NCBI GenBank assembly: GCA_964510585.1
Contig: CAZECW010000140.1
Span: 22,135 to 54,134, forward strand
Length of the DNA stretch: 32,000 nucleotides
Direction: 5' to 3'
Source: an uncultured archaeon
Lineage (GTDB): Archaea; Asgardarchaeota; Jordiarchaeia; Jordiarchaeales; Jordiarchaeaceae
The notes under the pieces are model-generated. The model saw only the letters and a program-made list of their open reading frames with translations, did no database searches and was not told where the DNA came from. Below, piece after piece: positions 8,712 to 20,386 of this stretch; the first letter of the stretch is position 1, and each line of letters begins with the position of its first letter. Position numbers and translations under genes: made by a program.

Positions 8712-8830
8712 GGGCACGTCGCCTAGCCAGGATTTCAGAAACCTGAAAGGGCGCCGACAGTTAGGCGTACGCCCTCTAAAATCCTGGAGGATAGCCGGTT
8801 TCATCAGGGGTTCAAGTCCCCTCGTGCCCG
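8712..8830 (+). tRNA. tRNA-Arg(TCT) with three 14-nt introns (8734-8747 in D-loop just before A21, 8757-8770 at 29/30, 8779-8792 at 37/38)
   Basis: Acceptor GGGCACG/CGTGCCC, T-arm AGGGG-TTCAAGT-CCCCT. After intron removal the anticodon arm is CCGGC-CC-TCT-AA-GCCGG. BHB central helices CAGG/CCTG, GCGC/GCGT, CCTC/GAGG. Confidence 0.85.
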
Positions 8831-9873: not shown

Positions 9874-9906
9874 TAAGAACCACCCAAAAAGCTGATAAAA
9901 AGGAAC

Positions 9907-10062
9907 TGGAGCCCCGGGCGAGGTTTTTGGAGCAGCAGAAATTGCAAGCTCTATCGAACTCGCGACCGTCAGCTTACTCAGACCACACTTTGAATGTGTG
10001 ATTGTACGAGGCTGCTGCTCTGCCACTGAGCTGTCTCGCCTCTGTTTCAGAGGAACCGAGGC
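9907..10062 (-). tRNA. tRNA-Thr(CGT) with three introns (10033-10054 at 8/9, 9975-10004 at 37/38, 9924-9952 at 59/60); CCA encoded
   Basis: Acceptor GCCTCGG/CCGGGGC, U73-CCA, D-arm GCTC-AGTGGCA-GAGC, loop CT-CGT-AA, T-arm GCGAG-TTCGATC-CTCGC; each intron has BHB geometry. Confidence 0.9.
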
Positions 10063-10212
10063 TCACCGAAGGCTCCATCTTTTACTAAAGAGTTCAAAGC
10101 ATTAATAATCTTTACTATGTGTGTCCAATGTGTCAATTTTTAATGTTAAAAAATCGAAGGATAACTAAGCGGGAAGCGGCATAAAAGATTCATTTAGTTG
10201 TTTTGGGAGTGA

Positions 10213-10357
10213 TGGTGCTCCGGCCGGGAGGCTCAAACTAAGTTTAAAGGTTAGCTTAGTTATTTGAACCCGGGTCAAAGGATCGATTGGGCAGATTTTC
10301 TTGAGCCCCTTATGCTTGGTCCATTTGGTTTGTTTGACCGGACTACACCACCGGAGC
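10213..10357 (-). tRNA. tRNA-Glu(CTC) with three introns (10316-10333 at 21/22, 10287-10302 at 34/35, 10230-10262 at 59/60); CCA encoded
   Basis: Acceptor GCTCCGG/CCGGAGC-A-CCA, GTGTAGTCCGGTCAA D-arm, variable TGAC; central helices GGTC/GACC, GGGC/GCCC, TTCA/TGAG. Confidence 0.9.
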
Positions 10358-11736: not shown

Positions 11737-11861
11737 GGGCCCATAGCTCAGCCTGGTATGAGCGCCGCGTTACTCATACCCTACTAACAAGGGCATGAGG
11801 GCGAAGGCAAGCTATCCCAAAATCGCGGAGGCCGCGAGTTCAAATCTCGCTGGGTCCACCA
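11737..11861 (+). tRNA. tRNA-Ala(GGC) with two introns (11772-11805 at 33/34, 11810-11822 at 37/38) and a 4-nt anticodon exon; CCA encoded
   Basis: G3:U70 acceptor GGGCCCA/TGGGTCC-A-CCA, Ala-type D-arm GCTCAGCCTGGTATGAGC, stem CCGCG/CGCGG; spliced loop TT-GGC-AT. Confidence 0.85.
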
Positions 11862-12306: not shown

Positions 12307-12407
12307 TGGTGGACACTGCGAGATTTGAACTCGCGGCCTCCTGGATGCGAACCAGGCGCTCTTGGATACCGCTTGTTTGGCGGAATCTTCCACTGAGCTA
12401 AGTGCCC
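12307..12407 (-). tRNA. tRNA-Ala(CGC) with one 26-nt intron (12361-12386 at 22/23); CCA encoded
   Basis: G3:U70 acceptor GGGCACT/AGTGTCC, arm CCTGG-TT-CGC-AT-CCAGG, central helix TGGA/TCCA with outer CCGC/GCGG. Confidence 0.92.
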
Positions 12408-20242: not shown

Positions 20243-20386
20243 TGGTGCAGGGCAGGAGAGTCTCGGGAGATGAAGCCAATCTCCATTCGAACTCCTGAAC
20301 CCCTACGGGACTGGATTTCTTAACTATTTGTTGTTTTTCTCTTTGATCTTGAGTCCAGCGCCGTTGACCTGCTTGGCTAGCCCTGC
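20243..20386 (-). tRNA. tRNA-Leu(CAA) with two introns (20317-20347 at 37/38, 20260-20285 at 59/60); CCA encoded
   Basis: Acceptor GCAGGGC/GCCCTGC-A-CCA, CTGGA-CT-CAA-GA-TCCAG, long variable arm TCCCGTAGGGGTTC; T-loop intron has TTCG/CGAG helix and GGAGAT/ATCTCC outer stem. Confidence 0.92.

Follow-up and report, generated by a model that had tools for sequence, protein, structure and literature searches.

The tRNA-Thr(CGU) gene on the minus strand of the window (the whole 32,000-nucleotide stretch of DNA analysed here) is preceded by a 15-nt leader, which we read, with somewhat better than even confidence, as a stand-in ("anti-acceptor") strand acting in cis, in a pre-tRNA where the first intron makes use of the tRNA's own 5' acceptor strand. 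Introns beside the acceptor stem pose a folding conflict, because the splice motif and the acceptor stem want the same bases, and a stand-in supplied by the leader would be a simple solution. The support for a helper element of this kind is computational, coming from sequence comparison and folding models, and the roles assigned to it below are predicted ones.

Positions 10118-9893 of the minus strand form a complete tRNA transcription unit with three introns. Neither ARAGORN nor Rfam calls the unspliced gene in the raw window, and ARAGORN recognizes the hand-spliced 75-mer as tRNA-Thr(cgt) with a normal cloverleaf. The unit opens with a block ATAGTAAAGATTATTAA (10102-10118), kept in all six genus genomes, for which archaeal promoter geometry suggests a promoter function. 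A TATA-like element had been placed about 25 nt upstream of the leader copy, and the sequence ATTATTAA is indeed found within this block (10109-10102), 24 nt from the 12-mer. A variable 24-nt spacer (10078-10101), used here as a neutral-rate control, separates the block from the leader element, which comprises the 12-mer TGGAGCCTTCGG (10066-10077) and the trinucleotide TGA at leader bases -3 to -1 (10063-10065); the 12-mer consists of TGGA, the complement of U73-CCA, and a copy of acceptor nt 1-7 with one extra T. In every member of the genus 24-29 nt separate the end of the TATA-like box from the 12-mer downstream, so that transcription is predicted to start at the 12-mer or just before it.

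Exon 1 (nt 1-8, GCCTCGGT; 10055-10062, with G1 at 10062) is followed by intron 1, of 22 nt, between nt 8 and 9 (10033-10054), and by exon 2 (nt 9-37; 10005-10032), which carries the anticodon CGT. Intron 2, of 30 nt, occupies the canonical 37/38 position (9975-10004) and is missing from one member of the genus, G002. Exon 3 (nt 38-59; 9953-9974) and intron 3, a 29-nt T-loop intron at 59/60 whose boundary is ambiguous by one base (9924-9952), lead to exon 4 (9907-9923), which contains the 3' strand of the T-stem, the acceptor 3' strand CCGGGGC, U73 and an encoded CCA. The trailer (9893-9906) includes a conserved T-run, GTTCCTTTTTATCA, that is likely a terminator. Position 59/60 holds an intron in many tRNA genes of this genome, DNA of which is found in hot-spring metagenomes, and 92-95% of tRNA genes bear introns in the Freyarchaeia/Jordarchaeia lineage (PMC11291895).

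Intron 3 also holds CTGCTGCTC, a 9-nt perfect complement of exon nt 22-30 (GAGCAGCAG; 9934-9942 with 10010-10018, minus strand), and in the predicted fold of the precursor this is the dominant pairing; it occurs in G000-like genomes only and is absent from G002 and G005. A second multi-intron tRNA gene (10213-10357, minus strand; 5' GCTCCGG, 3' CCGGAGC-A-CCA) lies 150 nt upstream of tRNA-Thr, and escapes both ARAGORN and, at the gathering threshold, Rfam. On the plus strand, window positions 8712-8830 give a weak tRNA-like match in Rfam.

The intron between nt 8 and 9 has a canonical hBHBh' motif. Its central helix, C3-G6 (CTCG) with CGAG, is invariant in six genomes and has a probability of 0.8-0.9 in folding models, and it is flanked by two 3-nt bulges, GT|T (G7-T8|T) and AC|A (A-C|A9). 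Changes in intron 1 among the orthologs fall in the bulge bases, the hairpin loop and two loop-closing pairs; the bulge positions that vary are base three of the first bulge and base two of the second, as expected if these are unpaired. The intron-side helix is CCTCTG/CAGAGG, and the exon-side helix pairs TGAGC (T-3 to C2) with GCTCA (G10-A14), three of its pairs using leader bases. The leader trinucleotide TGA does therefore extend a helix of the 8/9 motif, as an earlier note on this DNA had proposed, with the correction that it is the outer, exon-side helix and not the inner one. Because the motif takes nt 3-6 for its central helix and bases -3 to 2 for its exon-side helix, it excludes the acceptor stem; and since the exon-side helix needs leader bases -3 to -1, splicing would logically have to precede RNase P cleavage. 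Two genes with EndA domains are present in this genome, at G000:C157:27039-27287 and G000:C126:19921-20181.

The 12-mer can pair with positions 9917-9907 (CCGGGGC-T-CCA) through seven Watson-Crick pairs, one U-G pair and, beyond a single bulged U, three further Watson-Crick pairs. The description from which this work started, of a leader copy of the acceptor 5' strand forming 11 pairs and one bulge with the 3' end, is thus exact in sequence and coordinates. When the 60-nt leader is paired with its own 3' 11-mer using RNAduplex, the energy is -18.4 kcal/mol, a value reached by none of 200 shuffled leaders (mean -7.6 kcal/mol, sd 2.2). Among 24 tRNAs of the genome, 21 have leader duplexes of -8.0 kcal/mol or weaker, the outliers being tRNA-Tyr (-22.5 kcal/mol), tRNA-Thr and initiator tRNA-Met (-17.7 kcal/mol).

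Orthologues of the gene were compared in five other congeneric genomes, six in all. The block TGGAGCCTTCGGTGA (TGGAGCCTTCGGTGAGCCTCGGT in the alignment) is invariant throughout this set, and all 15 leader bases (12-mer and TGA) are identical across the six genomes. The adjoining spacer of 24-29 nt has an identity of 50-66% between deep lineages and contains indels, and in the contig of a further relative 10077 is precisely where the similarity begins. The leader of tRNA-Tyr, taken as a control, is not conserved in these genomes. Invariance at 15 of 15 positions beside a diverged spacer indicates that the leader element is under purifying selection. Elsewhere in the gene there is a compensated change in the T-stem, from A52-T62 to G52-C62; no compensatory covariation is seen between the 12-mer and its 3' partner, neither side varying within the genus. 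A longer pairing in the minimum-energy fold, which involves 15 of 16 leader bases with nt 61-76, was considered and rejected as a conserved feature, as T-stem changes in G002 and G005 are uncompensated in the leader. Two runs labelled metatranscriptomic behave as DNA contigs, with strain and relative variation only and no RNA ends or joints.

A search with the spliced sequence over 151 genomes of the phylum, with the loci then read by eye, places the intron and the leader copy together in tRNA-Thr of two genera, 11 genomes in total. The second of these, genus g19, belongs to another class and is represented by five genomes; its tRNA-Thr(CGU) has an intron at the same place, and GCCCCGGTA-CAT is present upstream of GCCTCGGTA. 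About 20 tRNA-Thr(CGU) loci without the 8/9 intron, in family f2 of the same order, in genus g11 (the sister genus of g19) and in families f12, f7, f19 and f25, have no upstream copy when read by eye. In this genome, two other U73 tRNAs without the intron, one of which has the anticodon TGT, have only GA or TGGA directly before G1. The earlier note had named a lack of co-occurrence between leader and 8/9 intron in relatives as grounds for refutation; the two are instead found together in g19, and the intron-less loci have neither. The introns of the two lineages are alike at both ends, so that this co-occurrence counts as one or two events and not as eleven, and to judge from these sequences the two lineages with intron and copy may share one origin.

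The copy in the genus studied here includes a counterpart of nt 8, and that in g19 counterparts of nt 8-9; in the sister genus without the intron, the 5' strand has the same sequence as the g19 copy, GCCCCGG. The g19 genes have no encoded CCA and their copy has no extension, and the copy is still kept. Two g19 loci (L039 and L040) contain a second tandem unit, consisting of the copy, CAT, exon 1 and the first 17 nt of the intron, about 40 nt upstream and partly decayed. We note that this tandem arrangement indicates that the region duplicates repeatedly, with the outer copies decaying and the proximal one being kept.

Folding models of the full precursor at 37 C depend strongly on the 12-mer. 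With the native leader the central helix has a probability of 0.91 and the acceptor stem 0.00, with a ddG (BHB minus acceptor) of -5.5 kcal/mol; with a TGA-only leader these values are 0.00, 1.00 and +6.7 kcal/mol, and with scrambled 12-mers they are 0.01-0.57, 0.37-0.99 and -0.2 to +3.7 kcal/mol. In the model, then, the 12-mer moves the balance from the acceptor stem to the splice motif by about 12 kcal/mol. Growing transcripts modelled at 65 C fold mainly into the complete motif at lengths from 52 to 160 nt, whether or not the 12-mer is included, and the exon-side helix has a probability of 0.8-0.99 in nascent transcripts. Without the 12-mer the motif collapses only upon addition of the last ~10 nt, which are the 3' acceptor strand, and with it the central helix is still at 0.81 at full length. 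This modelled behaviour is as would be expected of a stand-in for the late-arriving 3' strand. As the motif is already dominant in nascent RNA, a stand-in would be unnecessary if splicing were co-transcriptional. In models with the full leader, the exon-side helix has a probability of only 0.05 (37 C) or 0.3 (65 C), since GGTGAG has an alternative partner in the 3' strand of the T-stem.

In the spliced RNA the predicted leader-bound fold lies below the cloverleaf by 11.7 kcal/mol at 37 C and by 7.0 kcal/mol at 65 C, and a release step is thus needed if the leader is not to become a trap. Removal of the first four bases (TGGA) gives a native fold of -34.0 kcal/mol versus -28.8 kcal/mol for the stand-in helix. 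Archaeal RNase P RNA (RF00373) has full-length matches of 165-208 bits in three congeners (G003, G004 and G005) and in g19 (G047); there is no match in the whole assembly of G000 or in G002, which probably reflects an assembly gap.

From these observations a sequence of events can be proposed. During transcription the splice motif would fold freely, until the 3' acceptor strand, emerging last, would otherwise displace it. The 12-mer would capture that strand through the same seven pairs and four more with U73-CCA, leaving the central helix and part of the exon-side helix open to the splicing endonuclease and keeping RNase P off the leader bases that the motif needs. After splicing the leader would have to be released, and our guess is that TGGA is lost, for example if RNase P cleaves at the base of the stand-in helix; the bulge-free true strand would then win and the normal RNase P cut would follow. 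The extra T of the copy, by creating the bulge, would help the true strand to win in such a stepwise release. The earlier note had read the leader as a placeholder strand, and that reading is supported in part, by the complementarity, the conservation, the co-occurrence with the intron and the model energetics; the release step, left out at the time, has to be added to it.

Copies of the acceptor 5' strand are also present upstream of three other tRNAs of the genome. Two of these have intron sequence that can pair with the tRNA's own 5' acceptor strand. The tRNA-Phe gene has a 9/10 intron with its central helix on nt 4-7, and TGCCGTCG is located 22 nt upstream, invariant in five genomes, with indels in the spacer. 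In initiator tRNA-Met the copy is GTAGCGGGA, which lies 14 nt upstream and does not vary among six genomes; the intron sequence of this gene, parsed in part, includes a conserved segment, ATCCCGC, that is complementary to nt 2-8. The third is tRNA-Tyr(GTA), outside the window (G000:C4:42961-43144, minus strand; L013), which has GGT-CCCGCAGTAACT-TTA directly before CCCGCAG, at its true 5' end CCCGCAGTAACT; the copy pairs over 10 bp with the 3' end to give the -22.5 kcal/mol noted above, and the gene has no 5'-proximal intron. The Tyr copy is a 15-nt insertion restricted to G000 and G001 (two of the six genomes), and must be recent, since G003 and G004 have GGT directly before C1. Its presence without a 5' intron indicates that such copies can arise and persist without a stand-in role. 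In G002 the tRNA-Tyr gene (L018), unlike that of its congeners, has no encoded CCA (the 3' end CTGCGGGA is followed by TTTAATT) and no T-loop intron.

A rival to the stand-in reading is that the Thr leader is a scar and nothing else: a left-over or duplicated exon 1 from the mutation that created the intron-bearing 5' end, or from a local tandem duplication, tolerated since RNase P trims it and having no role in splicing. That such remnants form is seen in the Tyr copy and in the further, decaying tandem unit of two g19 genomes, and the sequences of the copies fit as well, as they carry counterparts of nt 8-12 that are unable to pair with the 3' strand, and in g19 match the 5' strand of the intron-less sister genus. 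A neutral relic should, however, decay as the spacer does, to 50-66% identity, and yet six genomes and one further lineage show no change at any of the 15 bases; at Phe and initiator-Met, too, the copy is invariant and the spacer changes, and in g19 it is the outer duplicate that decays and not the proximal one. A scar origin and a present function are also compatible. We therefore regard a scar origin as likely, the element probably having begun as an exon 1 duplicated or left over at intron gain, and consider it unlikely that this is the whole explanation. A scar alone would also give the co-occurrence with the intron, and only the conservation argues for present usefulness.

A different explanation is suggested by the ends of the other leaders. 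A regular-expression census delineated 29 tRNA genes (not the full set), including those at window positions 10213-10357, 11737-11861, 12307-12407 and 20243-20386; when the search was relaxed to admit genes whose 5' strand is interrupted, the additional hits were all false positives. CCA is encoded in all delineated tRNA genes of G000. The leaders end in a consensus A-G-G-N, with base -1 complementing N73 in 21 of the 29 genes, G at -2 in 18 and G at -3 in 14, and G is rare farther upstream, so that the acceptor stem of many precursors can extend by 2-4 bp into the encoded N73-CCA. As short leaders that pair with N73-C74-C75 are common, RNase P must routinely cut at the foot of such helices.

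This bias could point to a general end clamp, in which leader/3'-end pairing throughout the genome closes the precursor ends, protects CCA and times RNase P or 3' processing, with the Thr leader being a longer version unrelated to the intron. The Thr 12-mer does begin with TGGA, the exact complement of U73-CCA, and another U73 tRNA has TGGA directly before G1. Such a clamp leaves unexplained the further 7-8 nt of acceptor copy (the GCCTTCGG part in Thr), which is conserved across the genus only at Thr, Phe and initiator-Met, each of which has intron sequence that pairs with its own 5' acceptor strand; and the g19 genes, which have no encoded CCA and no extension, retain the copy nevertheless. 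For these reasons we think a clamp unconnected to splicing quite improbable.

It could also be asked whether exon 1 proper is the upstream copy, in which case the 11 nt before the second copy would be a fourth, hidden mini-intron. Removing those 11 nt gives the same mature sequence, and in g19 the upstream copy would make a better acceptor stem. Since the two copies are a direct repeat, however, both strands of the central helix would be the same 4-mer (GAGC), which is not self-complementary, and no BHB is possible; moreover, there is an extra T in the Thr copy, an A in place of U8 in the initiator-Met copy, and variation at that position in the Phe copy, all of which makes a fourth intron highly improbable. 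Chance complementarity in a G+C-rich leader is hardly credible, given that none of the 200 shuffles attains the observed duplex and that the element is conserved and recurs at three other tRNAs, although some scrambled 12-mers of the same composition do also favour the BHB fold in the model.

Two other candidates were tried and rejected. For removal of the leader by the splicing endonuclease, we found no arrangement in which a 3-nt bulge at -1/+1 is joined to a second bulge through a 4-bp helix, and an integration-site (att) repeat does not fit copies that are 3-22 nt apart and at the 5' end.

With the stand-in strand as the preferred reading for tRNA-Thr, we tentatively raise the possibility, which we rate a little short of even, of an undescribed class of elements in the intron-rich Asgard archaea: spare acceptor strands, derived from left-over exon 1 and gained with 5'-proximal introns, that would hold the 3' strand and CCA, make the introns spliceable, enforce splicing before 5' trimming, and be released by stepwise trimming by RNase P. 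If true, this would be an RNA folding switch built into tRNA maturation that fixes the order of processing, with splicing before RNase P, and it would account for the very possibility of intron gain close to the acceptor stem of a tRNA gene, the old exon 1 being kept as a helper. It would also add to archaeal tRNA genes a functional part that lies outside both the mature sequence and the introns. This has implications for annotation, as leaders are ignored by tRNA finders and in intron censuses.

We found no leader element with pairing to the acceptor 3' strand described in reviews of archaeal tRNA introns and disrupted tRNA genes, in the 2024 Asgard genome paper (PMC11291895) or in an October 2026 preprint on Asgard tRNA introns (10.64898/2026.10.13.758758); the word 'leader' occurs in neither of the last two. 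The genome paper reports BHB introns in the Asgard Freyarchaeia/Atabeyarchaeia, and non-canonical BHB introns in multi-intron archaeal tRNA genes are described by Marck and Grosjean (2003) and Sugahara (2008), here as relayed in PMC11291895. The Thr gene resembles these in being protein-spliced, in the unusual intron positions, in the 4-bp central helix with two 3-nt bulges, in having several introns per gene, and in being missed by gene finders. The descriptions, so far as they are relayed there, concern the intron and its flanking exon, whereas the pairing proposed here would join an element of the leader to the 3' acceptor strand.

Split (trans-spliced) and permuted tRNAs (PMC4090602, PMC4033280, PMC3978253) are similar in that base-paired sequence outside the mature tRNA makes a splicing-competent precursor. 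In those genes the BHB itself is built from the extra leader and trailer sequences, which the splicing endonuclease then cuts away. The Thr leader, in contrast, would pair with an exon strand separate from the BHB, and it lies outside both splice sites, so that the endonuclease cannot remove it. By analogy, the nearest functional counterparts may be these leader and trailer pairings together with the placeholder pairings of rRNA maturation.

In rRNA maturation, the bacterial 16S leader forms alternative helices, and pairing of the U3 snoRNA and the 5' ETS delays formation of the 18S central pseudoknot. The likeness to the proposed Thr element is that a strand destined for a helix of the mature RNA is kept occupied by a transient partner while an earlier step of processing is completed; the RNA class, the enzymes and the scale differ, and there is no known relation in sequence or evolution. 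Eukaryotic pre-tRNAs have leader-trailer pairing that extends the acceptor stem, and this is reminiscent of the Thr leader in that a 5' leader pairs with 3' sequence by the acceptor stem. Among the leaders of this genome the short GGN ones are like that arrangement, whereas the Thr 12-mer would replace the 5' strand of the acceptor stem instead of extending it.
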